Of a DNA stretch of 64,000 nt, positions 15,742-35,969 are shown one piece after another. The stretch comes from a virus (lineage: Duplodnaviria > Heunggongvirae > Uroviricota > Caudoviricetes), in IMG/VR virus record IMGVR_UViG_3300014205_000195, positions 28,184 to 92,183 of that record, one strand, 5' to 3'. Within the stretch, counting starts at the first letter, position 1; every line of letters starts with the position of its first letter. Under the pieces are notes generated by a model. It was not told the origin of the DNA. It made no database searches and saw nothing but the letters and a program-made list of their open reading frames with translations. The position numbers and the translations under genes are program-made.

Positions 15742-15748
15742 GTTCGTA

Positions 15749-15824: not shown

Positions 15825-15857
15825 ATGTTCCCGTCCCCGTGGGGTTGGGATCGTTCG

Positions 15858-16013: not shown

Positions 16014-16036
16014 GCCGCCCACCCCCGTGGTTAGTC

Positions 16037-16112: not shown

Positions 16113-16125
16113 GTCTCTTACCAGG

Positions 16126-16206
16126 TGCTCCGGGAGGGACTCGAACCCCCATGGCTCGCGGGGCCACACGCGTTGCATGATACATTTCCAATTCTGTCAC
16201 CGGAGT
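16126..16206 (-). other. class-II-sized tRNA-like element of uncertain identity (T-arm GGGGG-TTCGAGT-CCCTC, acceptor with A1:C72 mismatch, no clean anticodon arm)
   Basis: D-arm and variable-arm-like hairpins fold, but the anticodon loop lacks U33 and its stem is mostly G-U pairs. Confidence 0.3.
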
Positions 16207-16247
16207 ATGCTTACACTATACCACTCAACGGCGCCCGTGTAAACCCC

Positions 16248-16511
16248 TCAGAGGATCAAAATCTTCCTCTCCGTCGTCGCATGCACGAAGTAGGCCGTGC
16301 GCCGATCGAGACCGATGAGGTGCACGCTGCCCACCAGGCCGACCATGTCGTCGGCGTACGCGACGACACGCCCATCGTGCACCGCCAGCCACGAGCCATC
16401 GCCGTACCTGGAGACCAGCGAGTCCATCGTGTTCATCGACCAGAACGCGTTCACGCTGTGGCTGAATCTTTGGATGCCCCGTGCGGCCTCCTCGGCCTCC
16501 ACCTGATCCAT
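16248..16511 (-). CDS. hypothetical protein (87 aa)
   Basis: ORF track; protein-like composition. Confidence 0.45.
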   Translation of the reverse strand: MDQVEAEEAARGIQRFSHSVNAFWSMNTMDSLVSRYGDGSWLAVHDGRVVAYADDMVGLVGSVHLIGLDRRTAYFVHATTERKILIL

Positions 16512-16525
16512 GCCTGCCTCCTGAT

Positions 16526-16571
16526 AGCTGGGGGCGGGGTTCGAACCCGCGGCGACTTCTGTCTACCCCAG
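16526..16571 (-). other. 46-nt tRNA minihelix-like element: 7-bp acceptor-like stem GCTGGGG/CCCCAGC enclosing a canonical T-arm GCGGG-TTCGAAC-CCCGC, no D or anticodon arms
   Basis: Direct reading; resembles the 3' acceptor/T-arm portion of a tRNA. Confidence 0.35.
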
Positions 16572-16805
16572 CGTCACTGTCTCTCTGGGGAAGTCTTCCC
16601 TCCCCATGATGAGAACGAAGCACCGGCAGCACACGTAGGCCGTCAGCCCGTGCGCCGGCCGGCGCCGGTCGTCAAACATCCGCTCCTCGCCCACCTTGTG
16701 GGTCGCAGGCGCTCGACACATGGAACATCGCTCGCCGGCACACGCGGCGGACACCCAATGCTCGACACTCACGACATCCTCGGGATCATGCTGATCAGCT
16801 GCCAC
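16563..16805 (-). CDS. hypothetical Cys-rich small protein (80 aa)
   Basis: ORF track; CxxC pairs. Confidence 0.35.
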   Translation of the reverse strand: MAADQHDPEDVVSVEHWVSAACAGERCSMCRAPATHKVGEERMFDDRRRPAHGLTAYVCCRCFVLIMGREDFPRETVTLG

Positions 16806-17458
16806 CGGTGCTCGCGCCAGTTGAACGCCTGCGTCATGGCGCCGTCTGGCTCGACGAGCCCGCCCATCCTGTCACGCGGCGTCGCCACCTCGTCCAGCAT
16901 GACGTCGTTCAGCTCCAGCCGCTCCACTAGCTCATGCACCTTCATGCCCTGGCACGCAGAGTGCCCGAACCGGCTCTGCGCGATGGCGTTGATGCTGTTC
17001 CTAACGGCATCTTTCTGTCGCCAGAGGAAGTAGTTCTCCACCTCTGTAGGGTCCGGTATTGTCCAGACCCGCGAATCGAACGTCGCGAGCCGTCTCCACT
17101 CAGGCATGGCCGCGTTGAAGCACGCGGTCGCTATCGACGCCGACACGCTAGCGAGCTTCTGGACGTTGTTGTCGAACATGGCCTCCGTCTCTACCGTCTC
17201 GAAGTCGGTCATCAGAAGGCTCACCTCGTCGCTCTGCACGTACGCAAACCTCGCGTTCTGCATCGTGGTGACGAGCCCTGAGGCGACCGCGTCCATCGCG
17301 TTCGTTATCATCCGGTCGAACGGCTTCTCGAACGGGCGACACAGCGTGTGGAACGCGCGTCCGTCCACCCTGATGAGCGTGTACGTGCGGCGCGGCAGCA
17401 TGTACCGGGTCCTGTCCTCGTACTGCCTCTTCATCCGATCGCCTAGCTCGTCGCGCAT
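16769..17458 (-). CDS. Thg1-like protein (tRNA-His guanylyltransferase family, 3'-5' nucleotidyltransferase used in tRNA 5'-end repair)
   Basis: YTLIRVDGRAFHTLCRPFEKPFD...AYVQSDEVSL matches the Thg1/TLP signature (RIDGRxFHKF...KPND...SDE); start trimmed to the internal Met because the ORF-track N-terminus overlaps tRNA-Arg. Confidence 0.7.
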   Translation of the reverse strand: MRDELGDRMKRQYEDRTRYMLPRRTYTLIRVDGRAFHTLCRPFEKPFDRMITNAMDAVASGLVTTMQNARFAYVQSDEVSLLMTDFETVETEAMFDNNVQKLASVSASIATACFNAAMPEWRRLATFDSRVWTIPDPTEVENYFLWRQKDAVRNSINAIAQSRFGHSACQGMKVHELVERLELNDVMLDEVATPRDRMGGLVEPDGAMTQAFNWREHRWQLISMIPRMS

Positions 17459-17481
17459 CACACCAGCCTCGCTGTGGTCTT

Positions 17482-17556
17482 TGGTACCCTCGGCAGGACT
17501 CGAACCCACATCCTGACGTTCGAAGCGTCGCATCCTATCCGTTGGACGACGAGGGC
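17482..17556 (-). tRNA. tRNA-Arg(TCG)
   Basis: anticodon loop CTTCGAA; T-loop TTCGAGT; CCA encoded; G1:U72 wobble. Confidence 0.7.
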
Positions 17557-17710
17557 ATTGTACCGGGCTACTTCAGACCCCGGCCCGGCAGGCACGTCTC
17601 GCAGCGTCCTGCTCTGCTGCACCGTCGGACCGCTCGCCACCCACCCCGGCTACCCACTCGCGCGATGTGGTTCACGGGCCTAAGCCTCGTCCGTCCGACA
17701 GTCTCTAGTT

Positions 17711-17787
17711 TGGCGCCCCCGGCAGGACTCGAACCCGCGGCCTTGGAGGTAGAAGCTCCCTGCTCTATCCGACTGAGCTACGGAGGC
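17711..17787 (-). tRNA. tRNA-Arg(TCT)
   Basis: anticodon loop CTTCTAC; D-arm GCTC-AGTCGGATA-GAGC; T-loop TTCGAGT; CCA encoded. Confidence 0.75.
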
Positions 17788-17995
17788 GCTCGATGGTCGC
17801 AGTCTCCTTGGACTGCCTGTACCCTGGCCTCGCCAGGACTATGTTCTGGGCGGCGTGCACGGCGGCCACGAACTCGGCAGAGTCCGATGGGTGCTCATCT
17901 GGGAGGAGCCAGAACGCCTTCGCGGCGGCCCCAAGCAGCTCCAGGACGCGCAGCTCGACGTCTGTGATCAGGAACCCGCTCAGGTCGTCAGTCAC
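17765..17995 (-). CDS. hypothetical small protein (GTG start, about 76 aa)
   Basis: Trimmed from ORF track 17765..18094; weak. Confidence 0.25.
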   Translation of the reverse strand: MTDDLSGFLITDVELRVLELLGAAAKAFWLLPDEHPSDSAEFVAAVHAAQNIVLARPGYRQSKETATIERLRSSVG

Positions 17996-18194
17996 GGAGG
18001 CGGTACTCCTTCTCTGCGTTCCACTCGAGGGCCTCCACGATGAGGCGCGCCTCGAGCGGGTCATAGCCGCCGGCGACCAGCGCTGAGTGGACAACCTCCC
18101 TCGTCTCTATCGAGCTTCGACCCAGCCAGCTCATCCAGAGCCCCCTCGTCTCTGCGTTCAACGCCCTGTCCGGGTTCACGTCGTACCACCCCAT
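17988..18194 (-). CDS. hypothetical protein (68 aa)
   Basis: ORF track; protein-like. Confidence 0.4.
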   Translation of the reverse strand: MGWYDVNPDRALNAETRGLWMSWLGRSSIETREVVHSALVAGGYDPLEARLIVEALEWNAEKEYRLRD

Positions 18195-18212
18195 CGCATG
18201 CCCTCCGTCTCG

Positions 18213-18288
18213 TGGTAGGCCGGGCGGGACTCGAACCCGCGACCTCGTCCTTCGCAGGGACGCGCTCTATCCGCTGAGCCACCGGCCT
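18213..18288 (-). tRNA. tRNA-Arg(GCG)
   Basis: anticodon loop CTGCGAA; AC stem CGTCC/GGACG; perfect acceptor AGGCCGG/CCGGCCT; CCA encoded. Confidence 0.75.
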
Positions 18289-18294
18289 GTGTCG

Positions 18295-19185
18295 CTACTC
18301 CGGCTCCTGCTCCCCCCGTCCGGGTACGTACCTCGTCTTGCCATACCCGCCGGCCCTGATCCTGTCGTACTTGAAGTACTCGCACAGCCAGTGCTCTATC
18401 GAGCTCAGGTGGAGGCGCTGGAGGCCTGGCGCGGCGACCGACTGGAAATCGAGCTCCAGCCTGTGGTACGCCTCGTCCTGGACGTCCCTGAGCCGCCGCA
18501 TGGCGCCCATGGCCTCGGTCGGCTTGAGCTTGTACCCGAAGACGACCTCGAGCCCGCCGAGCGCGCCAGGGCCGGCGTGCGCCCACTCGTCCACGCCGAC
18601 GGTGACGACTGGGTCCGGGCCGTACGTGAGGTCCTGCACCATCTGGTACCCGAGGAAGCTGCCGACGCCGTCCACGCAGGTCATCCACTCATAGGCGCCC
18701 TCCAGCGAGGGCGCGGCCTTGAGCTTCACCGCCAACGCCTCGGACATCCACGCGACCGTCGGGATCGCCTCCGTCACCGCCTTGAACGACGGCGCCATGT
18801 GGGCGGACGTGAACACCGGCTTCTTGGACTTCTTCCGTTCGGCCATCCTGGCCACCACGTCCCGCGGCTCCAGGTCGGCCATGCTCACGAAGCCGCCGAG
18901 CACGTCCCGCCACGAGTCCACGTTGTTCAGCTCGCGGTAGAACCACACGTTCCACACGATGTCCGCGTCGGACAGCCCCGCCGCCCTCGCCTCTGTGATT
19001 CTGTCTATCAGGAACACGGTCCCTGCGTCCAACTCCCTGAACACGTTCGTGAACTTCCACGAGGAGAAGACCGGGTCGTCCGTCCACGGGGCGGACGCTC
19101 CTGAGTCCCTCACGTGCCATATGCGCTGGCGCTCGTGCGCGGTCCTGAAGAAGTCCTCTAGGGCAGCAGTCCAGTCGAGCCGCAA
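18295..19185 (-). CDS. hypothetical protein (296 aa), conserved-looking, function unknown
   Basis: ORF track; globular composition (…FTNVFRELDAGTVFLIDRI…); no family recognised with confidence. Confidence 0.6.
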   Translation of the reverse strand: MRLDWTAALEDFFRTAHERQRIWHVRDSGASAPWTDDPVFSSWKFTNVFRELDAGTVFLIDRITEARAAGLSDADIVWNVWFYRELNNVDSWRDVLGGFVSMADLEPRDVVARMAERKKSKKPVFTSAHMAPSFKAVTEAIPTVAWMSEALAVKLKAAPSLEGAYEWMTCVDGVGSFLGYQMVQDLTYGPDPVVTVGVDEWAHAGPGALGGLEVVFGYKLKPTEAMGAMRRLRDVQDEAYHRLELDFQSVAAPGLQRLHLSSIEHWLCEYFKYDRIRAGGYGKTRYVPGRGEQEPE

Positions 19186-19398
19186 GCCATCTCCCGGCCG
19201 GAGGTCACCGGCATCGGCTACAGCTTACCAGGAAGTCGTGGCCGTAGTACGAGGCCCTGTCGATGTCCACGTCGTCGCGGTGACGGCCCAGCACGTGGCA
19301 CAGCACAAATGATATTATGGCATTCATATCACGATTATACCGGCGCCGGCACTGCGACCGGACCCGCGCACCAACGGCGCTCCCTATGGCATCGATAG

Positions 19399-19487
19399 TG
19401 GAGGAGGGCGGCGGACTCGAACCCCCACGCCGGCTCTCGCCGACCTCACCGCTTTCGAGGCGGCGTACCTCTCCTTTGGGGCCCTCC
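19399..19487 (-). tRNA. tRNA-Ser(CGA) (class II)
   Basis: anticodon loop CTCGAAA; perfect acceptor GGAGGGC/GCCCTCC; long variable arm; CCA encoded. Confidence 0.75.
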
Positions 19488-19489
19488 AC

Positions 19490-19702
19490 TCATGTGACGA
19501 CGACGAATATGACCGCCATGCAGCAGGCGACAGCCAGGGCGTACGTACCGACGTAACCGATCAGCAGCGCGGCGACCCAGTGGCTGCCGATCGACAGGGT
19601 GCTCTCCCTCTGCCGGGCGACGTCGATGAGCAGCGACCTGATGTTGGCCACGCATAGCGCGATAACGACGACGCTTATAATGACAGCCAGCCAACCGACC
19701 AT
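19490..19702 (-). CDS. small two-TM membrane protein (70 aa), holin-like topology
   Basis: Two hydrophobic segments (LAVIISVVVIALCV / VAALLIGYVGTYALAVACCMAVIFVVV). Confidence 0.45.
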   Translation of the reverse strand: MVGWLAVIISVVVIALCVANIRSLLIDVARQRESTLSIGSHWVAALLIGYVGTYALAVACCMAVIFVVVT

Positions 19703-19940
19703 TCCAGCCTCCGGCGACGGCGGCCCGATAGATCGATTGGTCGCAGCGAGGGGGACCCGAGAGGTCGAGCTCGCTAACCGCGGTTATCGCCGATGGCCGC
19801 TGGGGTCCCACGCCAAAGCGCCATCCCCAGGTTTTGGATACGGAAAGCCATCGACGCTTCCCCGTGCCCAATCCAGGCACGCTGGTCGGGCCCCCGTCGC
19901 TGTGTTAGATAATACCGCGAACCGAGCTCGCGCTCAGCAG

Positions 19941-20288
19941 CTACTTCCCGATGAACTTCCACGGCTTACGGGTCTCATGGCACCGGCCGTCGAACCCGTC
20001 GACCCTCGCGGCCCATCTCAGGTCGGACGCTTCACGGCGCATCCACTGGAGCGGGTTGGACTCCTCATGGCAGGTCCGCCAATGGTCCCAGACGTAATCG
20101 TTCCAGTCCCACACCTGCGACACGTCCCGGAGAGTCGGCGGCGGCCTTGACTCTATGTCGCCCGCCAACCACGAGCGAACGGCCGCCCTGAGCGTCCTGT
20201 TGGCGAGCGTCTTCCAGTAACGCGCAACACGCGGCCTGCCGGCCCCCTTTCTGACCGGCGAGCTCCTGTACGAACGAGACATGATCAC
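19941..20288 (-). CDS. hypothetical protein (115 aa)
   Basis: ORF track; Trp-rich, protein-like. Confidence 0.45.
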   Translation of the reverse strand: MIMSRSYRSSPVRKGAGRPRVARYWKTLANRTLRAAVRSWLAGDIESRPPPTLRDVSQVWDWNDYVWDHWRTCHEESNPLQWMRREASDLRWAARVDGFDGRCHETRKPWKFIGK

Positions 20289-20328
20289 CTCCCTAGAGGA
20301 ATCTCATGCCTACACCTCCCAGTTTATC

Positions 20329-20417
20329 TGGCGGAAGGACAGGGAATCGAACCCTGGACCCGGTCTCCCGGGCAGCCGCTTTCAAGGCGGTGTCCTCGTC
20401 CGTGCCGGACGCCTTCC
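20329..20417 (-). tRNA. tRNA-Ser(TGA) (class II)
   Basis: anticodon loop CTTGAAA; discriminator G; long variable arm; CCA encoded. Confidence 0.7.
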
Positions 20418-20433
20418 GTACGACTCTATCATC

Positions 20434-20528
20434 TGGCGGACAGGGAGGGATTCGAACCCTCGGACCGCCCGTAATGGGCGACCACCCGCTTTCCAAGCGG
20501 GCCCGTTCGGCCTCTCCGGCACCTGTCC
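20434..20528 (-). tRNA. tRNA-Ser(GGA) (class II)
   Basis: anticodon loop TTGGAAA; AC stem CCCGC/GCGGG; perfect acceptor GGACAGG/CCTGTCC; CCA encoded. Confidence 0.75.
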
Positions 20529-20732
20529 GTTCCGCTGGAAGTGGGACGCCAGCCGGGTGGATTCCAACCACCTGGCAACATTACGTTCTCCGGTTTCCAC
20601 CCCGCAGCCTAACGCGGGGGAACCTTCCTGCGAGCGAGGGTGTCACGCACCACGCCGCGGCCGACGGAGCCCACACGCGATCGGTACCACGGGTCTACCC
20701 GTAGCCCTAGTCGCCGTCCCCAGCCTGGATCT

Positions 20733-20807
20733 TGGTGGACCGGCCGGGACTCGAACCCGGAACTCCTCGGTGCGAGCGAGGTGTTTTCCCATTAGCACTA
20801 CAGGCCC
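20733..20807 (-). tRNA. tRNA-Ala(CGC)
   Basis: anticodon loop CTCGCAC; G3:U70 wobble (Ala identity element) present; CCA encoded. Confidence 0.75.
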
Positions 20808-20819
20808 ATGCTGTTGCGT

Positions 20820-20894
20820 TGGTGGACCGGCCGGGACTCGAACCCGGAACTCCTCCATGCCATGGAGGCGTTTTCCCGTTGCTACTACAGGCCC
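20820..20894 (-). tRNA. tRNA-Ala(GGC)
   Basis: anticodon loop ATGGCAT; AC stem CCTCC/GGAGG; G3:U70; same 3' half as the neighbouring Ala tRNA; CCA encoded. Confidence 0.75.
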
Positions 20895-20905
20895 ACGCTG
20901 CTAGA

Positions 20906-21697
20906 TCAGTCGATGTCGGGCATGAGCCCGCGCGACTCGAGGTACTTGGCTGTCCGCTCGGCCTCGTCGACGGAGATGCCGGCCGCCGCGGCCACGAGGC
21001 TCGCATCGGTGGAACCGATGCTCGCGGAGGTGGCGACGTAGGACCTGGCGCTGTTGACGAGGCCCGCCGTGCTCGCCATGGTCATGTGCACGGAGTGCGA
21101 CGCCTGGTGGATGTCATCGACCGACATCGTCGTGTACTCGCCCTCGCAGGCCGTCGCCAGGTCCTTGAACCCAGCAACGTCGGAACCGATCGATATCACG
21201 CTCAGGCGCAACGATCCCTCGTTTATCGAGCGGGCGACGCCGCCGAGCGTTAGGCCGCACGGGCATCCCTGCGGGAACCCGTCGCCCCACTGACCCGCCA
21301 TCCCGTGCGGCGGCGCGTCGCCGACCAGCCACAGGCGCCGGTCCGCCTTCCTGCGCCACTTGAGGGAGACCGCCGCGTCCAGCCCGTCGAACACGGCCTC
21401 CGGCGCGTCGCCGCCGCCGCTCGCGAACATGCGACCGAGGGCCATCTTGAAGCCCTGCGTGTCCTTCCAGTCGGTGACATGCGTGACGAAGGACGAGTCC
21501 TGCGGCGGGTGATCGCGGTACGCAACGAGCGCGACCCTCAGATCGAGGCCGGCGTCCGTCGCCACCTCGTCGAGGATCCGCTTGATCTCGCGGCGAGCCT
21601 CATCGATGAACGGGCTCATGCTGCCCGTGCTGTCCACCACGAACGCAAGGTCTACCTTGCCGATGTCGTCTGTCACGTGTTTCCCGTCCTTGCCCAT
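20906..21697 (-). CDS. von Willebrand factor A (vWA) domain protein (about 263 aa)
   Basis: MIDAS motif DLAFVVDSTGSM near N-terminus; start trimmed to MGKDGKH (ATG 21697) since the ORF-track N-terminus overlaps tRNAs. Confidence 0.7.
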   Translation of the reverse strand: MGKDGKHVTDDIGKVDLAFVVDSTGSMSPFIDEARREIKRILDEVATDAGLDLRVALVAYRDHPPQDSSFVTHVTDWKDTQGFKMALGRMFASGGGDAPEAVFDGLDAAVSLKWRRKADRRLWLVGDAPPHGMAGQWGDGFPQGCPCGLTLGGVARSINEGSLRLSVISIGSDVAGFKDLATACEGEYTTMSVDDIHQASHSVHMTMASTAGLVNSARSYVATSASIGSTDASLVAAAAGISVDEAERTAKYLESRGLMPDID

Positions 21698-21721
21698 TGT
21701 GTCTACGCAAGCATACCGGGA

Positions 21722-21800
21722 TGCGCCCGCCCCGGAGTCGAACCGGTCCTTCCTCCGCAATGGAGGACGTGCTGCCGCAACACCTCTGCGAACTCTGGCC
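21722..21800 (-). other. tRNA-like element with T-arm (CCGG-TTCGACT-CCGG) but no clean acceptor pairing
   Basis: minus-strand reading; a CCTCC/GGAGG hairpin is present but no canonical anticodon loop. Confidence 0.25.
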
Positions 21801-21900
21801 GTGCAGCGCTGCCGCGCCGAGACGGGGGCCGTCGCCCGTCCAAGCCGGCGGGTGATCGGCCCGCCGGACCGGCGCCCGCGGAGCGCCGGCTTACATGCTA

Positions 21901-21977
21901 TGGTCCCCAGTACGGGATTCGAACCCGTGTTCTCTTGATTGACAATCAAGTATGTTGGGCCTCTACACCAACTGGAG
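21901..21977 (-). tRNA. tRNA-Asp(GTC)
   Basis: anticodon loop TTGTCAA; AC stem CTTGA/TCAAG; T-arm ACGGG-TTCGAAT-CCCGT; CCA encoded. Confidence 0.7.
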
Positions 21978-21981
21978 GTCT

Positions 21982-22066
21982 TGGTACCGGGGGAGGGAGT
22001 CGAACCCTCACGCTCGTGGAGCATCGCATTCTGAGTACGACGTGGCTGCCGTTACACCACCCCGGT
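21982..22066 (-). tRNA. tRNA-Leu(CAG) (class II)
   Basis: anticodon loop CTCAGAA; perfect acceptor ACCGGGG/CCCCGGT; variable-arm hairpin; CCA encoded. Confidence 0.75.
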
Positions 22067-22102
22067 GAGCGAGCGGCTGGACTGCCAGCCGCATCAATGC
22101 CT

Positions 22103-22187
22103 TGGTACCGTCGGCAGGGATCGAACCTGCTAGCGCGAACGCACCGGGTTTACAGTCCGGCTCCCAGTCCATTAGAGAATCAACGGC
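22103..22187 (-). tRNA. tRNA-Tyr(GTA) (class II)
   Basis: anticodon loop CTGTAAA; T-arm GCAGG-TTCGATC-CCTGC; variable arm GCGTTCGCGC; CCA encoded. Confidence 0.7.
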
Positions 22188-22231
22188 ATGGTGCCGGGCT
22201 ATTCAATGCGGTGCCCGGCGGAACGCTCCTT

Positions 22232-22307
22232 TGGCTGGTCGGGAGGGATTCGAACCCCCACCTTAGCGGGTAACAACCGCCCATCATACCTATTAGACCA
22301 CCGACCA
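22232..22307 (-). tRNA. tRNA-Asn(GTT)
   Basis: anticodon loop TTGTTAC; perfect acceptor TGGTCGG/CCGACCA; discriminator G; CCA encoded. Confidence 0.75.
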
Positions 22308-22310
22308 ATC

Positions 22311-22397
22311 TGGTACGGACGGGGGGAGTCGAACCCCCACCCCCTCTCGAGGACCGGACTCTCATTCCGGCGCGTCTGCCATTCCAGCCACGTCCGT
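22311..22397 (-). tRNA. tRNA-Leu(GAG) (class II)
   Basis: anticodon loop ATGAGAG; AC stem CCGGA/TCCGG; perfect acceptor ACGGACG/CGTCCGT; CCA encoded. Confidence 0.75.
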
Positions 22398-22778
22398 GCT
22401 TACCCTGCTCCTGAGCTTGAACTCGGCGAGCAGGATCTCCATCTCTCGTCGACCGACCAGCTCCTCGCCGGGACGGGTCAGCCCGAGCTCGAACAGGCGA
22501 CACGGCTTGTTGTCCCAACGGACGCACACGCCGCGGCCCCACCTGGCGTGCTTCATGTCGCACACCAGGCAACGATAATGCCCGTGGTGGCCGCAGTCGT
22601 CGCCAACCACCTTGACCGCTGCGTCGGTGTGGTGGACGAACCGCCCCATGCCGAGGTGCTCGGTCCAGCACACCTTGACGCCCAGCCTCGATGCACGACG
22701 CATCTTCCTTATCGTCGGGAGCGCCGCGACGGCGACCGCTACCGACGCCAGACAGACCACCATGATCGCCGTCAGCAT
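22362..22778 (-). CDS. hypothetical membrane/secreted protein (138 aa)
   Basis: ORF track; hydrophobic N-terminus; its 3' end overlaps tRNA-Leu(GAG) by about 35 nt so the true stop may differ. Confidence 0.4.
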   Translation of the reverse strand: MLTAIMVVCLASVAVAVAALPTIRKMRRASRLGVKVCWTEHLGMGRFVHHTDAAVKVVGDDCGHHGHYRCLVCDMKHARWGRGVCVRWDNKPCRLFELGLTRPGEELVGRREMEILLAEFKLRSRVSTDVAGMADAPE

Positions 22779-22779
22779 C

Positions 22780-22856
22780 TGGTACCCCCCGGGGGATTCG
22801 AACCCCCATCTCCACGGGTAAAAGCCGCGCGCTCTAGTCCGTTGAGCTAGGGAGGC
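22780..22856 (-). tRNA. tRNA-Lys(TTT)
   Basis: anticodon loop CTTTTAC; D-arm GCTC-AACGGACTA-GAGC; T-loop TTCGAAT; CCA encoded. Confidence 0.75.
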
Positions 22857-23043
22857 CCTTCTTGGCGGCCCAGGCCTCCTCGACCACGCGGTCGACGAGC
22901 TCCCTGGTTATCCTCGGGTTCTCGATGTGAAGGTTGCCCCAGACAAACGACTTGGCCTGCTCCTTCTTCATCTCGTCCGTCATCACGAACCCGCTGGCGC
23001 GGATGCGGTCCAGCATGGCCACTATGTCGTCGTTGCTTGGCAT
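22834..23043 (-). CDS. hypothetical small protein (about 69 aa, MPSNDDIVAMLDRIRASGF...)
   Basis: Trimmed from ORF track 22834..23181; start set at ATG 23043. Confidence 0.4.
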   Translation of the reverse strand: MPSNDDIVAMLDRIRASGFVMTDEMKKEQAKSFVWGNLHIENPRITRELVDRVVEEAWAAKKGLPSSTD

Positions 23044-23061
23044 CCGCCGCCTTTCTTTCTT

Positions 23062-23135
23062 TGGAGCAACCGGAGGGAGTTGAACCCTCGACCCGACCTT
23101 GGCAAGGTCGTGCGTTACCGCTACGCCACGGCTGC
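23062..23135 (-). tRNA. tRNA-Gly(GCC)
   Basis: CGACC-TTGCCAA-GGTCG anticodon arm (classic Gly-GCC arm); T-loop TTCAACT; discriminator U; CCA encoded. Confidence 0.8.
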
Positions 23136-23236
23136 GAGGTGGACCGCCATGGACGGTCCCGTTGGGCGCGTCGCCTACCATCCAACGCCCTTCAGGGGAG
23201 CCACATCGACCACTCCCCCAACCCGAAACGCCTTCT

Positions 23237-23314
23237 TGGTCTGGGTGGCAGGATTTGAACCCGCGACATCTCGGATCCGAACCGAGTACTCTGGCCAGGC
23301 TGAGCTACACCCAG
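23237..23314 (-). tRNA. tRNA-Pro(CGG)
   Basis: anticodon loop TTCGGAT; AC stem CTCGG/CCGAG; perfect acceptor CTGGGTG/CACCCAG; T-loop TTCAAAT; CCA encoded. Confidence 0.75.
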
Positions 23315-23319
23315 ACGAT

Positions 23320-23394
23320 TGGTCGGAACGACGGGATTCGAACCCGCGTCCTCCCGGTCCCAAACCGGGCGCGCGACCGCTGCGCTACATTCCG
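23320..23394 (-). tRNA. tRNA-Pro(TGG)
   Basis: anticodon loop TTTGGGA; AC stem CCCGG/CCGGG; T-loop TTCGAAT; CCA encoded. Confidence 0.75.
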
Positions 23395-23405
23395 ACTGAC
23401 TTGAT

Positions 23406-23483
23406 TGGTAACGGGGTCGAGAGTCGAACTCGATGATCTTCGGCTTATGAGGCCGACGAGACTTCCCTTTCTCCATCCCCGCA
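23406..23483 (-). tRNA. tRNA-Met(CAT)-like (third CAU tRNA; 1:72 mismatch)
   Basis: anticodon arm TCGGC-CTCATAA-GCCGA; T-arm TCGAG-TTCGACT-CTCGA; CCA encoded; the top acceptor pair is unpaired. Confidence 0.55.
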
Positions 23484-23587
23484 CCGCGGTGATCGCCGGT
23501 CGGATTCCCACCGACCGTCCGGGCCTGTGTTTCCCGGCGGTGGAGCGTGCGGCTTTACCCGCATGCCCTGTCGCCAGCGCACGTACC

Positions 23588-23603
23588 ACGCGTCGCGACG
23601 CGT
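23588..23603. repeat. perfect 16-bp palindrome ACGCGTCGCGACGCGT
   Basis: Sequence reads the same on both strands. Confidence 0.8.
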
Positions 23604-23620
23604 CGCGGCGATCGGCTCTT

Positions 23621-23697
23621 TGGTCTGGAAGGCGGGATTTGAACCCACGGCCCCTAGCCCCCCGAGCTAGTGCTCTACCAGGCTGAGCTACATCCAG
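23621..23697 (-). tRNA. tRNA-Pro(GGG)
   Basis: anticodon loop TCGGGGG (C33); AC stem CTAGC/GCTAG; T-loop TTCAAAT; CCA encoded; one acceptor mismatch. Confidence 0.65.
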
Positions 23698-23815
23698 ACG
23701 GGATTAGTAGTGGCGCGACCGACCACTCTCTCCCGGACCTTTCGTTGGCTTACCATGCGAGCACTCAAGGTGCCGATGGTCGGTCGCTTGCCAACATGAT
23801 ACCGGGGGACTGCTT

Positions 23816-23890
23816 TGGGGTGACCGGAGGGGCTCGAACCCTCGCCAGCTGAGTCACAATCAACCGTGCTGCCCTTACACCACGGTCACC
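23816..23890 (-). tRNA. tRNA-His(GTG)
   Basis: anticodon loop TTGTGAC; encoded extra 5' G(-1) opposite discriminator C (His hallmark); T-loop TTCGAGC; CCA encoded. Confidence 0.8.
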
Positions 23891-24050
23891 ATCCAGTGCC
23901 GGGCCTGACCCATCAGCCCAACCGCCCCGGCCTCCGCAGGTGATACCTACGCCAGGGTTCCCACCAACCGCCTCGTGAGGGCGGCGCCTTCGTCGGGACG
24001 GCGCGCTCTACCGCGGTGCGAACGCGGGAGCGCTGGCCGTCCTTCGTATA

Positions 24051-24125
24051 TGGTACCACGACCGGGAATCGAACCCGGGCCTCCGCCTTGAGAGGGCGGT
24101 GTCCTGGCCGCTAGACAATCGTGGC
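24051..24125 (-). tRNA. tRNA-Glu(CTC)
   Basis: anticodon loop CTCTCAA; AC stem CCGCC/GGCGG; T-arm CCGGG-TTCGATT-CCCGG; CCA encoded. Confidence 0.75.
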
Positions 24126-24128
24126 ACT

Positions 24129-24204
24129 TGGTAGCCCGTGCCGGATTCGAACCGGCGCCGTCCCGCTTGAAAGGCGGGCGTCCTGTCCGGTAGACGAACG
24201 GGCC
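24129..24204 (-). tRNA. tRNA-Glu(TTC)
   Basis: anticodon loop CTTTCAA; AC stem CCCGC/GCGGG; T-arm GCCGG-TTCGAAT-CCGGC; CCA encoded. Confidence 0.75.
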
Positions 24205-24361
24205 ACTTGTTCACTGCGGGCCGGGCTCGACACCGGCTTCCTTGTTTTCCCCGTTATAAGCGGGACATTCGGTATCCACCAACGGGCTAGCACGCGTTGG
24301 CGAAGGGGGAACCGCCTATCCAGCACCCCGCGTGTCCTTCCACGCTGCCGCAGTTCATTCT

Positions 24362-24437
24362 TGGTACCCCCGGCAGGACTCGAACCTGCGACCATCTCGT
24401 TAGGACCGAGCGACTCTATCCTCTGAGCTACGGAGGC
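24362..24437 (-). tRNA. tRNA-Arg(CCT)
   Basis: anticodon loop GTCCTAA; T-arm GCAGG-TTCGAGT-CCTGC; CCA encoded; one AC-stem mismatch. Confidence 0.65.
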
Positions 24438-24600
24438 ACTTCTTCATAAGGCCGGGCGACGAACTAAGCCGCCGCCCGGCCGAAGGCATACTATAAGGTT
24501 TCCCGCTTGGACTGGCCGCGACGCATCCTGTTGCGCCGCGACTCCTTGGTCGGATCGCATTACGCGGATATCGACCGGCGAACCGATCGACGTGTGTGTC

Positions 24601-24676
24601 TGGTACTCCAGGGGGGATTCGAACCCGCGACCTCCCAGATGTGAGCTGGGTGCTCTAGCCACTGAGCTACTGGAGT
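24601..24676 (-). tRNA. tRNA-Val(CAC)
   Basis: anticodon loop CTCACAT; AC stem CCCAG/CTGGG; perfect acceptor ACTCCAG/CTGGAGT; CCA encoded. Confidence 0.75.
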
Positions 24677-24838
24677 GCCTGGTCGTTAGACCCGCCTCCA
24701 GCGCTGCATGGGGGCGGGCTAGCCGGTCCTCGATGGCGTCCGACCTGCGGACTGTCCAAATACCGGCTCATACGATGGTAGGCGCGGGTCTGTGCGCTTA
24801 TTGCCTTGCATACTGCCTCTGCCTCCCATTGTGTTCTC

Positions 24839-24913
24839 TGGCACGGCCTGTAGGATTCGAACCCACATCGTCCGGGTTGGAGCCGGATGTCCTATCCGTT
24901 GAACGAAGTCCGC
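24839..24913 (-). tRNA. tRNA-Trp(CCA)
   Basis: anticodon loop CTCCAAC; AC stem TCCGG/CCGGA; T-loop TTCGAAT; CCA encoded; one acceptor mismatch. Confidence 0.65.
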
Positions 24914-24995: not shown

Positions 24996-25436
24996 TCAGG
25001 GGATTTTTTCGACGTACCCCGCGAACGTCCTGTTGAACAGGCAGTCCGGGCTCCGGCGCGCCCTGATGTACTCTACCAGCTCCGGCCCGCGCATCGGCGT
25101 CAGCCGAGCGAGGACCAGGGCGGTCACCAGGGATGAGCGGTTCAGCCCCGCTGCGCAGTGTACCAGGACGCGCGTCCCCGCCCTCACGGCAGCCGCCGTC
25201 CGGTCAGCCACGGCCGCGAGGGCCGCCTCGTCCGGGAGGACGTGGTCGTCGTCGAACTCCCACCTGACCTCAGTGAACGGCTGCAGGTCGCTGGGCACGT
25301 GCCTAATGGGGTCGTCGCCGCAGAGGTTCACGACGTAGCGTATCCCTCTGCGCCACACCTCCATCTCGTCGAACGGCGTGTCGAGCGAGCCGGACTGCCA
25401 CAGCTTGCCGGGGATGATCTCCGACAACATCACCAC
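24996..25436 (-). CDS. dual-specificity / tyrosine protein phosphatase
   Basis: Active-site signature VHCAAGLNRSS (HCxxGxxRS). Confidence 0.8.
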   Translation of the reverse strand: MVMLSEIIPGKLWQSGSLDTPFDEMEVWRRGIRYVVNLCGDDPIRHVPSDLQPFTEVRWEFDDDHVLPDEAALAAVADRTAAAVRAGTRVLVHCAAGLNRSSLVTALVLARLTPMRGPELVEYIRARRSPDCLFNRTFAGYVEKIP

Positions 25437-26647
25437 GCCGACTGCGAGTGGTCGATGCCGTCCTGCCTGCGGTCAGCCAGGAGGTCGACGTCGTCGTCGG
25501 GCACGCCTGCCCCTCCGAGGGGACGCGGCGTCGGGCCGCCGTCGTCGAACGGGAGCGGGCCGCCCAGGTCCGGCGCCTGCTTCCTGTCGCGATGGTAGTG
25601 GTGGCCGGTGCCGCCGCGGGCGTCGCGGTGCTTCTCCTCTGGTGCGCCCCAGCCGTCCTCGGCCGGCGCCCTCTGGTCGCGGAGCTTGCTGCGGAGCCGC
25701 ACGGGGTCGCCCTCGTACTTGACGGGATACTCCTGCCGCTCGCTCTTGGGCCTGAGACTCTGCCGCCTCGGGAACTGCTTCACGGCGGACCCGGCGTCCT
25801 CCTGGTGGTGATGCGCGGTCGAGCCGAACGAGTCTCTGTGCTTCTCCTCCATCGACTTCGCGATGGCCGACGAGGCGGCTATGACGTCGTCGACGTCACC
25901 CTCGCCGTAGGCGAGCGCGAGGCGGCTCGCCGTATCGATGGCCTTCGCCAGGAGCGGCCTGTGGTCGGAGAGGGCGCTCTTCGGCTTCACCGCGGCGCCG
26001 GCATCCTCCGGGTCGAGGAGCTCGTCCGGGGCCTCTATGCCGGGGTCGAGCGCGTCCTTCGGCTTCTCGACGACGGCCGTGTCCCCGTCCCGCGACACGA
26101 CGAAGTCCGCCTGCGACAGCGCTCTGATGATCCGTCTCGACAGCTTCTTGACGCCCGCCTCGTCGACCGCCTCGGCGTCGACGTGGTACGAGCTCCCGTC
26201 GTCGGTGACCACGTACCCGTCCGGCTGCGTCGGCGACGCCGGCGGTATGTCGGCCGCGGCGAGCGCCTCGCGGATCCTCGCCAGCGTGCTCTCACGCACG
26301 TCGTCTACGGCAGCGGTCTGGGCGGTGTCCGGCATCTCGTCCTGCGCCAGCCCTGGGTCGCCGGCCGACGGGTCGTCAGCCTGTCCGTCCCCAAGCCCGC
26401 GCGCCGCGACGTCGTCAGACACGGGCGGCCTGGTGCGGCCGTCCGCCACGTAGAAGCGCCCGCCACGCGGGCCCTCCTGAACGAATATGCCGGCCGGCGG
26501 CTTCTCGTTCTGCCTGAGGTATATGCGCTTGGCCGGCAGCTCCATCCGCCTGTCGGAGTCGGACTCCTTGACGGCGAACGGGTCGGCCGTCCTCATGGTC
26601 GTCCGTCTGCGCGCCGCCCTGCTCTGGTGCTTGCTATCCGGCATCAT
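25430..26647 (-). CDS. hypothetical acidic protein (405 aa) with RGGxFY and KHRD...G(S/T)(A/G)HH repeat motifs
   Basis: ORF track; motifs GPRGGRFYVADGR, EEKHRDSFGSTAHHHQ and EEKHRDARGGTGHHYH. Confidence 0.55.
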   Translation of the reverse strand: MMPDSKHQSRAARRRTTMRTADPFAVKESDSDRRMELPAKRIYLRQNEKPPAGIFVQEGPRGGRFYVADGRTRPPVSDDVAARGLGDGQADDPSAGDPGLAQDEMPDTAQTAAVDDVRESTLARIREALAAADIPPASPTQPDGYVVTDDGSSYHVDAEAVDEAGVKKLSRRIIRALSQADFVVSRDGDTAVVEKPKDALDPGIEAPDELLDPEDAGAAVKPKSALSDHRPLLAKAIDTASRLALAYGEGDVDDVIAASSAIAKSMEEKHRDSFGSTAHHHQEDAGSAVKQFPRRQSLRPKSERQEYPVKYEGDPVRLRSKLRDQRAPAEDGWGAPEEKHRDARGGTGHHYHRDRKQAPDLGGPLPFDDGGPTPRPLGGAGVPDDDVDLLADRRQDGIDHSQSAW

Positions 26648-26885
26648 CGCCTCCCGTGTCTATCATGCTGGCCCGTCGCCTCCACCGCGACCCCGCGCGG
26701 CATCCCGCTCACCCTGGCCACGACGTAGCCGTTGGTGAGCGCCACGGCCATGTCCGCCAGGCTCCGGCCTCGCCTCTTCCCGGCCACCAGCCTCGCCCAT
26801 TGGGGGTCGCCGGCGTACCGGCCGTCATCGTACACCGAACACGCCAGCTTAGGCTGCCCGTCCGTCATCTCATATATGTCCAACT

Positions 26886-27869
26886 TCACCGGAGGCCGCC
26901 GTGCAGCGACGCGAGGACGTCCAGCCTCGCGTCTATTATTGACGCCTTCTCTGACTCGCTCAGCTTCACCTTCCCGACGCCATCGGAGCCGTGCGTGTTC
27001 ACCACGCGGGCGAGCACCGGCGCGAGCTGGTGGCGCTTCGCGAGCACCTCGCCGCAGGCGGCCAACACGTTCCGACGGATGACGTCGTTCCCACGGTAGT
27101 CGTCCGCCTCGACGCTCTCCGGGCTGCCTATCCCGAGCTGCTGCTCGAGCCCCGGCCAGGAGTTTCCCTTCAGGAGCTCCCACACGGACTCCTCGTCCGT
27201 CGGGTCGTCCCACCGTCCGGCGTTGTCTATCGCCCACAGCCTGTCGTTCTCTGGGTCCACGATGAAGTTCGCGCCGTGCCTGTCCCAGTTGCCCAGCATC
27301 AGATCCATGACGACCATGCGGCTGTAGTCCCTGACCATCGCCTCGCTGATCTCGCCGTCGTACATCTGGGCCAGTCTCGCCTTGCCGCCGAACCCGGCGT
27401 CGTCCACCCACCGCAGCGCCATGCCGTCGAACCGTTTCTCCTCCGTCAGCTGGTAGACGCCGGGATGGAGCCCCCACCCCATGATCTCGTCCAGCTGTTG
27501 CCACTGCAGCTCGCCAGCCCTGTCCACCTTGCTGGCCTTGATGAGCATCCTGCTGTCGGATAGGCCGGGGACAGGATCGAACGTCCCAGGCTTAGCGTAC
27601 GCGGTGGCGCACTTCCCGCGGTTCAGCGTGCCCTGCTGATCGGCGCACGTCCACGTGTCGTCAACCTTGACGATGTGACCGAAACCCATCCGACCGCCGC
27701 GAGCCAACGAACGGCCGGAGGCGGCTGGCTGCTGCTCTGCCGGCCTGCCTGCCGAGTCGGCGTCGTAGTAGAGCCCACCGCGCTCGCCCTGACGGACGGT
27801 CGCGCCAGGCGGCGCCGAGCCGGGCCTCCCGGTGACGTAGACTCGTCCCTTCTCGTAGATCTGGGTCAC
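26886..27869 (-). CDS. PI3/PI4-kinase-like atypical protein kinase (327 aa) with N-terminal RGGLYYDAD motif
   Basis: Catalytic-loop-like LGNWDRHGANFIV and metal-binding-like LWAIDNAG (DRHxxN / IDxG). Confidence 0.6.
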   Translation of the reverse strand: MTQIYEKGRVYVTGRPGSAPPGATVRQGERGGLYYDADSAGRPAEQQPAASGRSLARGGRMGFGHIVKVDDTWTCADQQGTLNRGKCATAYAKPGTFDPVPGLSDSRMLIKASKVDRAGELQWQQLDEIMGWGLHPGVYQLTEEKRFDGMALRWVDDAGFGGKARLAQMYDGEISEAMVRDYSRMVVMDLMLGNWDRHGANFIVDPENDRLWAIDNAGRWDDPTDEESVWELLKGNSWPGLEQQLGIGSPESVEADDYRGNDVIRRNVLAACGEVLAKRHQLAPVLARVVNTHGSDGVGKVKLSESEKASIIDARLDVLASLHGGLR

Positions 27870-33260: not shown

Positions 33261-34511
33261 CTACAAGTAGCGCGGATCGTGCTTCGGGCCGTACTTGGGG
33301 CGCCCGAGCACGTCGCGTTCCGGACCCCGCTCGTCATCGAGCTCCTGCTCCCTGTCCTTCACCCGCTGATCGCCCGCCGCTATCATGAGGTTCCAGGCCT
33401 TGTTGCCCTCCGGCGAGAGACCGCCACCCGGGACGTCCTCCCGGTCGCCGTGACCGAACATCGCCTGGAAGGCGGGGTAGAACATGTCCACCATGTCGTC
33501 CTCTGAGAAGTCGTCGGCCCCGCCGTGCTCGCTCTCCCACACGCCGTTCGCCCACACGTCAGCCATCTCGTTTATAGCGGGATGCTTCTTGGCCCAGCGG
33601 TTCGCGGTCCAGCCGTTCATGCTGTTTTTTCCGTCGTCCGGCTCCGGCGCCTCGAGGTCGCCGTCCCACCCCTGCCGCTGCCTGCCCTGCGTGCCGTACC
33701 CGGTCTCCGATGGGCCGTCGTCGTAGAAGAGGCCGCCACGCGGGCCCTGCCTCAGCTCCGCGCCCTCCGGGGCGTCGCCGCGGCCGTGCACGTACACCTT
33801 GTCCTTCTCGAGGCCGCCCTTGCCGACCCCCTCGCCGAACGTGGGATCGGTCATCGAGCCGTCGGTGCCGTAGTCGTACGGGTCGTCGTCCGGGTAGTTC
33901 GGCTCGCCGTGGCCCTTCGATATGTCCCCGGTGGCCATGATGGCGGCGTCCACCGCCTTGGACAGCGTCCCCGCCGGCCGTCGTGACGGACGGTGCTTCT
34001 GCCCGATGGCGAACCCGTCGCCGTCGCGGTCCCACTCGCCCATGCTCCCGAGGACGCGCCTGGCCTCGCCCTCTCTGGCAGCGTTTATCTCGGACAGGCG
34101 GCCACGTATGTCCCTGACCCTGCCGAGCTCAGCCGGCGTGCACTCGCCGCGTCGCGCCTTGTCGTAGAGGTCCTTGTACTCGTCGACGAGCTTGTCCTCC
34201 TCGCCGTGAAGCGGGTCTGCGCTGCCCTTACGGTGGCGCATGGCCACCGGGTGCTCGTCCGGGTGCCCGAAGTGCCGGTGCGTCAACGCGTGGCCGGCCT
34301 CCACCACCTCGATCGGGTCCTGCGTGTACGTGGCCTCGATGTCCGGCCTCGGCGCCGGGCCCTGGCCGCCCATGGCGCCGGCCATGTGCTTCACGACGAC
34401 GGAGTCGCCCACGCGTATGTACCTCTTGGTCACGTCACAGCTCCTGCGGGTCAACGGGCACGAGCCCCAAGCGTCCAGGCGCCGGCGGGTCTGCCCTGAG
34501 CGCCCACTCAA
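33261..34511 (-). CDS. hypothetical protein (416 aa) with RGGLFYDD motif (paralogous motif family)
   Basis: ORF track; GPRGGLFYDDGPSETGYG; Asp/Gly-rich. Confidence 0.55.
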   Translation of the reverse strand: MSGRSGQTRRRLDAWGSCPLTRRSCDVTKRYIRVGDSVVVKHMAGAMGGQGPAPRPDIEATYTQDPIEVVEAGHALTHRHFGHPDEHPVAMRHRKGSADPLHGEEDKLVDEYKDLYDKARRGECTPAELGRVRDIRGRLSEINAAREGEARRVLGSMGEWDRDGDGFAIGQKHRPSRRPAGTLSKAVDAAIMATGDISKGHGEPNYPDDDPYDYGTDGSMTDPTFGEGVGKGGLEKDKVYVHGRGDAPEGAELRQGPRGGLFYDDGPSETGYGTQGRQRQGWDGDLEAPEPDDGKNSMNGWTANRWAKKHPAINEMADVWANGVWESEHGGADDFSEDDMVDMFYPAFQAMFGHGDREDVPGGGLSPEGNKAWNLMIAAGDQRVKDREQELDDERGPERDVLGRPKYGPKHDPRYL

Positions 34512-35203: not shown

Positions 35204-35755
35204 CTACTTGGCCCTGGACCTGGATCGGCTGGACTTCGCTTCCTCGGTGGCGACCGGCTCTGACGCGGCTGCGGGCCCGTCGCCGTCGGTTATGCCCGCC
35301 TGGCCCTCGCCGATGGACTCGAGGGCGATGTCCAGCCCCAGCGGCACGACGACGAGCTCGCTCTCGTCAACGGCACCGTCGACGAACGCCTCATCATCAG
35401 ATGAGGAGGCCGATTCTGCCTCAACGGCGTATTCGCCGTCCTCGTCCTGCCAGCCGTACGGCCTGCCTATGGGATCTGCGAACCTGTGGGCAAGCGTGCG
35501 CTCGAGCACCTCCGACTCGTCCAGCCGCCTGAGACCGTCGAAGCCGTTGCCCTCGACAGCGAACACGTCGCCTGTCGGATCAGTCACGGTGGCGAGCGAC
35601 CCCACCCGGATCTCCGTCCCACCCTCAGCGATGAGCGCGTTGCCGTACGCTCCGCCGCGGTCGCCGATCACGCGGCAGTCCATGAACCCACCGCCCACGA
35701 GACCGAGCCTGTACAGCCCAGGCATGGGCACAAAACCATCACTCGTCATCATCAA
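35204..35755 (-). CDS. hypothetical acidic protein (183 aa)
   Basis: ORF track. Confidence 0.45.
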   Translation of the reverse strand: MMMTSDGFVPMPGLYRLGLVGGGFMDCRVIGDRGGAYGNALIAEGGTEIRVGSLATVTDPTGDVFAVEGNGFDGLRRLDESEVLERTLAHRFADPIGRPYGWQDEDGEYAVEAESASSSDDEAFVDGAVDESELVVVPLGLDIALESIGEGQAGITDGDGPAAASEPVATEEAKSSRSRSRAK

Positions 35756-35969
35756 ACTCCTCTATGGGGTCGGTCAGCAGACCGCCCTGGTAAATCGGCG
35801 ACCGAGCCTCGCCTGCCGCGACGCTAGCGGTCATCATAGCAAATTGCAACGCTATGCACGCATCCTTATACATGCCAGACCTGGTGGCCCTCCTAGACAC
35901 GCGCATGAGCTGCTTGAACACCCGGTCGAGCCGGTCGGCCTCGACGGCCGCGCGCTCGTCGTCGGTCAC
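35739..35969 (-). CDS. hypothetical protein (76 aa)
   Basis: ORF track. Confidence 0.35.
   Translation of the reverse strand: MTDDERAAVEADRLDRVFKQLMRVSRRATRSGMYKDACIALQFAMMTASVAAGEARSPIYQGGLLTDPIEEFDDDE

Follow-up and report, generated by a model that had tools for sequence, protein, structure and literature searches.

Two divergent members of a phage-borne atypical kinase family, one with a short leader motif, in an uncultivated tailed phage

Kinases carried by phages, T7 gp0.7 among them, rewire host translation and defeat defence systems, and few have been studied. Among atypical kinases, those of the PI3K/PI4K family (PF00454; for example type II PI4K and Vps34) are marked by a D..(G)N.DRH..N signature and an IDN/IDF metal-binding motif set in a protein-kinase-like fold. 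Polyvalent phage proteins and MuF-toxin fusions have been described as well (Iyer et al., 2017, PMC5512222; Jamet et al., 2017, PMC5576092), and both phage kinases and polyvalent effector proteins are already known (PMC5512222). Here we analyse a 64,000-nucleotide (nt) stretch of a tailed phage (IMG/VR record IMGVR_UViG_3300014205_000195, positions 28,184 to 92,183; the window), which carries two open reading frames (ORFs) with this signature, called K1 (26886..27869) and K2 (46077..46694) throughout. All window features given by coordinates lie on the minus strand. Our reading, to which we give a probability of roughly 0.55, is that K1 and K2 are divergent members of an uncharacterised family of phage-borne atypical kinases that moves as exchangeable effector cassettes. 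The first-pass annotation, which had proposed two paralogous PI3K/PI4K-like kinases and a dual-specificity phosphatase (24996..25436), located all three ORFs correctly, and the GNxDRHxxN loop and IDN are present in both kinases.

K1 starts with GTG and encodes 327 amino acids (aa), a leader motif followed by an atypical kinase. Its kinase-like domain, as delimited by a family alignment (A1, described below), an AlphaFold2 model and Foldseek, spans residues 65–303 (26961..27677). The catalytic loop GNWDRHGAN occupies residues 193–201 (27267..27293) and the metal-binding IDN, the DFG equivalent, residues 214–216 (27222..27230); the key residues are Lys111 (beta3), Glu120 (alphaC), a MALRWVDD hinge strand, Asp196, Asn201 and Asp215. 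An AlphaFold2 model of residues 60–327 made with the family alignment reached a predicted local distance difference test (pLDDT) of 86.5 and a predicted template modelling score (pTM) of 0.88, with Lys111 on a strand and Glu120 on the next helix. Compared with the PDB by Foldseek, this model matched Bud32, PI3K-gamma (template modelling (TM) score 0.55), ATR/ATM, PI4KII-alpha, PI4KB, CtkA and HipA, with probability 1.0 for Bud32, PI3K-gamma, PI4KII and CtkA at TM scores of 0.4–0.55. The profile of the family alignment, searched against PDB sequences, found Fam20C (E = 3.9e-8), PI4KII-alpha (1.7e-6), Vps34 (6e-6) and CtkA (4e-5), and further Fam20B, SMG1 and TOR. Because of these structural and profile matches we place K1 in the PI3/4K-Fam20-CtkA branch, where sequence and model together predict that it is a complete protein-kinase-like domain. 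It is very probably an intact kinase-fold enzyme.

The likeness to PI3K/PI4K includes the N-lobe Lys-Glu pair, which K1 shares. The Pfam PI3_PI4_kinase model matched K2 above its cutoff of 27.1 bits (40.3 bits, E = 4.4e-10) and gave 26.8 bits (E = 5.8e-6) for K1; for both proteins the alignment covered profile positions of about 128–168 of 241, around the catalytic loop. In contrast to PI3K/PI4K, with which about 40–90 residues align, the phage family has domains of 200–270 aa without helical/C2 domains or a lipid-binding activation loop, and it occurs in phages of GC content 0.30–0.72 and a haloarchaeal virus, hosts of which mostly lack phosphoinositides. Pfam scans of K1 (327 aa) and K2 (205 aa) likewise revealed no accessory helical/C2 or membrane-binding domains. 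What had been called PI3K/PI4K-like kinases thus appear to belong to that structural branch and not to the PI3K/PI4K family proper, with which they share the catalytic loop. UniProt's automatic label for some relatives is ‘PI3K/PI4K catalytic domain-containing’.

The other named families compare in a similar way. The Fam20C/Fam20B match, the best of the profile-to-PDB search, extends over the Lys/alphaC-Glu segment (FKP...AEIAAF..D.IL.F..VP) as well as the catalytic loop, but the Fam20C model (PF06702) scores K1 at 11.7 and K2 at 18.2 bits against a cutoff of 26.8, the phage family lacks a signal peptide and the Fam20 N-terminal region, and the biological setting is unrelated. CtkA of Helicobacter pylori and HipA, two small atypical kinases from bacteria that act as effector or toxin, share the structural branch of the phage proteins (Foldseek E of about 1e-3), although neither shows significant full-length sequence similarity. 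Comparison with profiles, which the first-pass annotation had suggested, agreed with PI3_PI4_kinase and CtkA and not with HipA: HipA_C and HipA_N had no match in K1 or K2 at E ≤ 1, HipA was reached only by a distant Foldseek match (E = 2.2e-3), and neither the HipA N-terminal domain nor a HipB partner was seen.

K2 is a minimal kinase-like protein of 205 aa, also starting with GTG. It has the catalytic loop GNSDRHSNN at residues 111–119 (46338..46364) and an IDN at residues 131–133 (46296..46304), and it retains Glu43, Asp114, Arg115, His116, Asn119 and Asp132. Its N-lobe has no lysine. The single lysine in the whole protein is K200, and the lysine column, which keeps the ATP-binding residue in 62 of the 74 family domains aligned there, is occupied in K2 by Asp29 (MAFFT) or Arg38 (hidden Markov model (HMM) alignment). 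Since this lysine is missing, K2 may not be an active kinase, and from its sequence we take it to be either a pseudokinase or a non-canonical enzyme; of the proposed kinase pair, K1 alone has the full catalytic set.

A single pairwise BLASTP comparison of K1 with K2 aligned 43 residues at 47% identity (E = 1e-7). A family profile built without K2 gave K2 80.7 bits over residues 32–135, and because of this score we assign both to one family. They are, as far as sequence comparison can tell, distant homologues and not recent duplicates, so that ‘paralogous’ is correct in the sense of shared descent and not in that of a recent copy. A scan of the window with the family profile found exactly these two copies.

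The wider family is easily overlooked. Word-indexed homologue searches with K1, K2 and alignment A1 returned only the query itself. When K1 was compared exhaustively by phmmer with 1.84 billion cluster representatives, 84 of these matched at E ≤ 1e-3, which makes for a family of at least that many representatives, all metagenomic, and 23 matched at E ≤ 1e-10 (best match 35% identity, E = 2.7e-34). Among 50,697 isolate phage genomes, tblastn with K1, K2 and two relatives (P0010 and P0035) found none, and megablast of the K1 and K2 regions against the same number of isolate records had no match. A profile search did recover a single member from an isolate, gp16 of the haloarchaeal virus HSTV-2. 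A scan of 185,579 reference genomes, limited to two peptide patterns, found no prophage or host relatives. In alignment A1 (27 sequences; residue counts below are over 92 domain copies), Lys111, Glu120, Pro136, Asp189, Asn194, Asp196, Arg197, His198, Asn201, Ile214 and Asp215 (K1 numbering) are invariant or nearly so. Loss of the catalytic Asp or Asn in homologues would have spoken against a kinase; Asp196 and Asn201 are present in 92/92 domains, and Asp215 in 91/92. Several copies per genome are common. The family is phage-restricted, rapidly diversifying and often multi-copy.

HSTV-2 (Halorubrum sodomense tailed virus 2), a cultivated haloarchaeal myovirus, is the only isolate in which we found a family member. 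Its gp16 (UniProt L7TJZ0, phrog_37179; KC117376 (L015), 10647..12119; 68.8 bits with the family HMM) is the top structural match of the K1 model in the BFVD set of viral structures, and its gene lies in the head-tail module, between the capsid and tail-sheath genes. In contrast to K1, gp16 (490 aa) lacks the leader motif and has an additional domain at its N-terminus. The virus also encodes a dual-specificity phosphatase (35377..35826). The gp16 N-terminus was compared with the neck protein of our window and showed no significant similarity (BLASTP E = 1.7), so we make no domain-fusion argument from it.

We consider the leader motif to be the most novel element of the finding. It is about 33 aa long with the consensus K.RVY..P.EAPEG..V.EGPRGG.YYE, and in K1 it reads RVYVTGRPGSAPPGATVRQGERGGLYY at residues 9–35 (27765..27845), where it also matches the N-terminus of phrog_24083. 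We built a motif HMM from 41 instances, including that of K1 (43.1 bits) and leaving out two further window proteins, in both of which the HMM found the motif. One copy lies near the N-terminus of ORF405, a neighbour of K1 (26438..26536; 36.8 bits, independent E-value (iE) 5.3e-10), and the third is internal to the product, about 400 aa, of ORF 33261..34454 (33717..33821; 39.7 bits, iE 6.6e-11), where a regular expression finds it too. Neither Pfam nor NCBIfam has a model for the motif, and a term search of PMC5512222 and PMC5576092 found no mention of it. The DNA of the three window copies is about 69% identical, which conservation of the protein explains, and we rejected recent gene conversion among them. 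Both HMM-detected proteins also have histidine-rich repeats, EEKHRDxxGxTxHH twice in ORF405 and THRHFGHPDEHPVAMRHRK in ORF 33261..34454; the N-terminal region of the latter is 43% identical to the product of a gene upstream of the kinase in another locus (L010, 1753..2559; E = 3e-31).

In metagenomic phages the motif occurs in up to five copies per protein and in varied company. Protein P0003 consists of two motif-plus-kinase units and a further motif, and is preceded by two motif-plus-kinase genes, giving four cassettes in a row (locus L007). P0051 runs from a kinase through a motif, a minor-capsid-like region and a second motif to an ADPrib_exo_Tox domain (61 bits). Its non-kinase parts match genes of isolate phages annotated as ‘minor capsid’ and ‘MuF-like minor capsid & VIP2-like ADP-ribosyltransferase toxin’, and its ADP-ribosyltransferase (ART) part matches MuF-like/VIP2 virion proteins of actinophages. 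Elsewhere two motif copies precede a Zeta_toxin domain (P0075, 105 bits), the motif shares a protein with GNAT domains (P0025), and it is joined to DRAT-like ARTs (L017 and L029). A 354-aa protein in L013 combines it with an HExxH region (Peptidase_M90, a weak match of 19 bits against a cutoff of 26.2), and in L028 a Phage_portal domain (40.3 bits, cutoff 39.1) is followed by two motif copies in a single ORF. The N-terminus of P0008 has a PPFHPGCRC stretch reminiscent of MuF, but Pfam gave no MuF match, and a MuF identity there is not supported. A scan of IMG/VR for GPRGGxYYE located 16 loci of GC 0.30–0.69, with a largest protein of 2,095 aa and frequent adjacent motif-bearing genes. Besides gp16, the BFVD neighbours of the K1 model comprised several uncultured Caudovirales proteins, a ‘portal’ of 1,201 aa and ‘ADP-ribosyltransferase’ proteins of 1,220–1,340 aa, one of them from Mycobacterium phage Onyinye.

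These arrangements resemble polyvalent and MuF-toxin proteins: family members occur in large multi-effector proteins with ART or GNAT domains, adjoin or are fused to head-module proteins, and the motif also joins Zeta-toxin and peptidase-like domains. In contrast to polyvalent proteins, K1 and K2 contain a single catalytic domain each, and homologues with at least two effector domains are P0051 (kinase and ART), P0003 (two kinases) and a 1,699-aa protein in L012 (kinase and a weak DRAT-like ART). The kinase clade in PMC5512222 is of S/T/Y type, has lost its C-terminal subdomain and occurs in elements of Verrucomicrobia, Chlamydia and Bacteroidetes; it is not the PI3/4K-like family of K1 and K2. 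The L012 protein (422..5521) lies upstream of the kinase P0011 and carries a leader motif, a divergent second PI3/4K-like domain (ANWDAHGMDGDN...IDNGG; 28.8 bits), long internal repeats and, at its C-terminus, the DRAT-like region (14 bits). We suggest tentatively that the motif is a general capsid- or portal-targeting or prohead-processing signal that tags interchangeable ejected effectors, namely kinases, ARTs, Zeta toxins, GNATs and peptidases.

K1 belongs to a compact gene run. Its GTG start overlaps the stop codon of an upstream ORF encoding a 68-aa membrane-like protein (GTGA), and this ORF, K1, ORF81 (26644..26889, overlapping K1 by 4 bp), ORF405 (25430..26647, with no Pfam, PHROG or NCBIfam match) and the phosphatase gene are chained by overlapping start and stop codons. 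The run ends right before a transfer RNA (tRNA) array, the phosphatase being its last gene. One weak sigma-70-like promoter match upstream of K1 lies inside the ORF that is translationally coupled to it, and we gave it no weight. The phosphatase, of the dual-specificity cysteine type and 146 aa long, has a P-loop HCAAGLNRS (HCx5R) at residues 93–101 (25134..25160), which confirms the HCxxGxxRS motif proposed earlier, and a WEFDDD loop (25245..25262), which lines up with the general-acid loop WPFDDG in PRL-3. It scores 38.8 bits with Pfam DSPc (PF00782; cutoff 33.5), and among proteins of solved structure it matches PRL-3, PRL-2 and DUSP10 best. It shares with dual-specificity phosphatases such as PRL-3 and DUSP10 the HCx5R(S) P-loop, the upstream general-acid loop, the size and the fold class, and differs from them in being phage-encoded; from these sequence features we regard it as a genuine member of that class.

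In several unrelated loci the gene after the kinase begins with a stretch similar to ORF81 (BLASTP E = 1.7e-5 for L009, and HMM matches). Such a gene start follows the kinase in the window, L009, L010/L011 and L013/L014, and faintly in L012 and HSTV-2 (gp17). Leave-one-out profiles recovered the omitted member at E = 0.09–2.7 only, for which reason ORF81 as a conserved partner is a weak lead; a role as immunity or adaptor domain is conceivable. In L004 (5200..6711) and L007 (5790..6953), weak ORF81-like profile matches fall in an alternative frame within the low-complexity linker between motif and kinase, and gene callers disagree at L004, where P0009 is a short, kinase-only version of the gene. 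Because of these observations some ‘motif+kinase’ genes may really be two or three genes.

K2 sits in the head module. Directly upstream is the portal gene (46687..48708; phrog_18178, E = 5.3e-54), the stop codon of which is overlapped by 8 nt by the GTG start of K2, and directly downstream is a neck or tail-completion gene, HK97 gp10-like (45670..46074; phrog_5, E = 1.8e-8, and a weak PF04883 match). In a related IMG/VR fragment (L016, portal 62% identical) the order is portal, neck, Cpn10-like, HhH-GPD, and the kinase is absent; because this locus lacks it, we read K2 as a lineage-specific insertion between the portal and neck genes, as judged from gene order. A frameshift fusion of portal and K2 was considered and is unsupported: K2 is read in frame +1 with respect to the portal gene, and the last 15 portal codons contain no slippery heptamer.

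If K1 and K2 are exchangeable effector cassettes, as we propose, K1 would be an active ATP-dependent phosphotransferase acting on host (or possibly phage) proteins, for takeover or counter-defence. Its leader motif might target it to the capsid, from which it would be ejected together with the DNA, or label a site of processing. The phosphatase, presumably co-transcribed, might limit, reverse or complement its action, or strip host Ser/Thr/Tyr phosphorylation, and K2 would be a decayed or repurposed copy, a pseudokinase that binds without phosphorylating or an enzyme using the non-canonical Arg38. We rate it an even chance that the substrates of K1 are proteins. Its delivery in the virion, to which the portal fusion in L028, the minor-capsid and MuF-ART matches of P0051 and the place of gp16 in a structural module point indirectly, is possible and on balance doubtful.

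Several observations weigh against this account or parts of it. The Pfam score of K1 is 0.3 bits short of the cutoff, and about 40 residues align to any known family. Literature searches found no characterised member of the kinase family, and its catalytic-core relatives phosphorylate lipids (PI3K/PI4K) and sugars (Fam20B) besides proteins, for which reason homology does not imply ‘protein kinase’. K1 lies amid non-structural genes (an exonuclease, a ribonucleotide reductase and the tRNA array), outside the head module, so its packaging is argued from the companions of the motif in other phages only. The portal-kinase and Mycobacterium-phage ART-kinase fusions in BFVD are known from structure matches alone, at TM scores of 0.48–0.56. 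K2 has no leader motif and no close relatives in IMG/VR or JGI metagenomes, and its AlphaFold2 model, from a 15-sequence alignment, is poor; with a pLDDT of 56.7 it was kept out of the fold search. Finally, the kinase-phosphatase set envisaged in the first-pass annotation holds for the window, where K1 and the phosphatase share a tight same-strand run, and not beyond it: in none of the other loci examined, mostly short ones, is the pairing repeated, and HSTV-2 alone among them encodes a phosphatase too, some 24 kb away from the kinase.

How far do other explanations account for these data? The kinases might be HipA-like toxins that halt translation or growth of the host or keep out superinfecting phages, with the ORF81-like protein as inhibitor or immunity factor and the phosphatase as a second safeguard. 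The catalytic loop is indeed of HipA/PI3K type, P0051 has a weak HipA_C match, family members share polypeptides with bona fide toxins (Zeta toxin and ADP-ribosyltransferases), and the recurrence of the ORF81-like start after the kinase would fit. However, K1 and K2 show none of the HipA features looked for above, the ORF81 similarity is weak in leave-one-out searches, and in L010 and L013 larger proteins begin with the ORF81-like segment, that of L013 adding an effector-type domain, which is unusual for an immunity protein. We find the toxin explanation unlikely. A substrate other than protein for K1, K2 or both seems less likely still. Actinobacteria make phosphatidylinositol, and the 66% GC of the window is compatible with an actinobacterial host. 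This lipid in the membrane of such a host, a sugar or cell-wall precursor (as for Fam20B and Zeta toxin) or a small molecule could be phosphorylated; the closest named families do include lipid kinases (PI4KII-alpha, Vps34 and PI3K-gamma) and the xylose kinase Fam20B. But the protein kinases Bud32, CtkA, Fam20C and PIKKs match equally well, the accessory or membrane-binding domains of PI3K/PI4K are not detected by Pfam, and most hosts across the GC range of the family and of the haloarchaeal virus lack phosphatidylinositol.

Two further explanations concern the neighbouring genes. The RNA-repair and tRNA genes of the phage raise the question whether the phosphatase is a partner of the kinase at all, or acts on nucleic acid or tRNA ends, like RNA 5'-phosphatases, in the service of the tRNA array and RNA repair. 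Its gene is the last before 39 tRNA genes, the phage has genes for an RNA ligase and a polynucleotide kinase-phosphatase, the HSTV-2 phosphatase faintly matches the Rit1 DUSP-like tRNA-modifying domain, and the lack of a conserved kinase-phosphatase pairing would be explained. Against this, the best sequence matches are the protein phosphatases PRL-3, DUSP10 and M. tuberculosis PtpB, and overlapping start and stop codons tie the gene to the K1 operon; we regard such a role as improbable. The thymidine hypermodification pathway of phages ViI, M6, SP10 and PhiW-14 is recognised by a pair of paralogous kinases together with enzymes of the HhH-glycosylase fold and a dUMP hydroxymethylase from the thymidylate-synthase family (Lee et al., 2018, PMC5889632). 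In the window region there are a thymidylate-synthase homologue, a dCMP deaminase, two kinases and, about 0.85 kb beyond K2 on its downstream side, an HhH-GPD protein, yet homology refutes K1 and K2 as kinases of this kind. The M6 5-HMUDK (gp54) is a P-loop kinase (GCNGSGKTT; PF18748, 65 bits), whereas K1 and K2 lack a P-loop and are predicted to have another fold, and the M6 glycosylase-fold partners match PF18724 and PF18723, whereas the window protein matches the classical HhH-GPD model (PF00730) only and is not of ADDT or aGPT-PPlase type. The tblastn searches with K1 and K2, being empty for all isolate phages, also speak against it, and we give it hardly any credence.

The window is phage DNA, as indicated by its portal gene, class II ribonucleotide reductase, exonuclease, 39 tRNA genes and the related IMG/VR portal. 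Almost all of its genes are on the minus strand, and the K1, K2 and phosphatase ORFs have a high-GC coding signature (GC at third codon positions 0.86–0.87). An identical 20.6-kb stretch around K2 is present in a 107-kb ENA metagenome contig, and the K1–K2 interval was also found in a 46-kb Logan contig. The tRNA array (8624..24913), which begins directly downstream of the phosphatase gene, has its 39 genes interspersed with small ORFs and covers 20 amino acids. A T4 Rnl1-type RNA ligase (43580..44737), an RlaP nucleotidyltransferase (42876..43583) and a polynucleotide kinase-phosphatase (41974..42879) form an RNA-repair set (41974..44737) that, together with the array, suggests defence against host anticodon nucleases. 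Consecutive NAD-related genes (38278..41848), encoding CinA (41339..41848), Band_7 (40300..41286), NAMPT/NAPRTase (38829..40259) and NUDIX (38278..38832) proteins, may rebuild NAD+ against NAD-depleting defence systems. Two segments, 44779..45507 and 54528..55379, concern the nucleotide-related genes named above: the HhH-GPD glycosylase-fold and Cpn10-like proteins are encoded just downstream of the neck gene, and the thymidylate-synthase homologue and dCMP deaminase further upstream.

The family described here is missed by BLAST in isolates, yet it is recurrent in metagenomic phages, often within polypeptides that also carry established toxins. An active K1 would represent a new enzyme class in the phage toolkit for takeover and counter-defence, and if the leader motif does tag ejected effectors, K1 would be an injected kinase that acts ahead of any phage gene expression. 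K2 would be an example of an effector cassette that is decaying or being repurposed beside a portal gene. Should the motif prove to be a packaging or processing signal, it would offer a simple sequence handle for virion-delivered effectors, and the ejected effector sets of uncultivated phages could be read straight from sequence.

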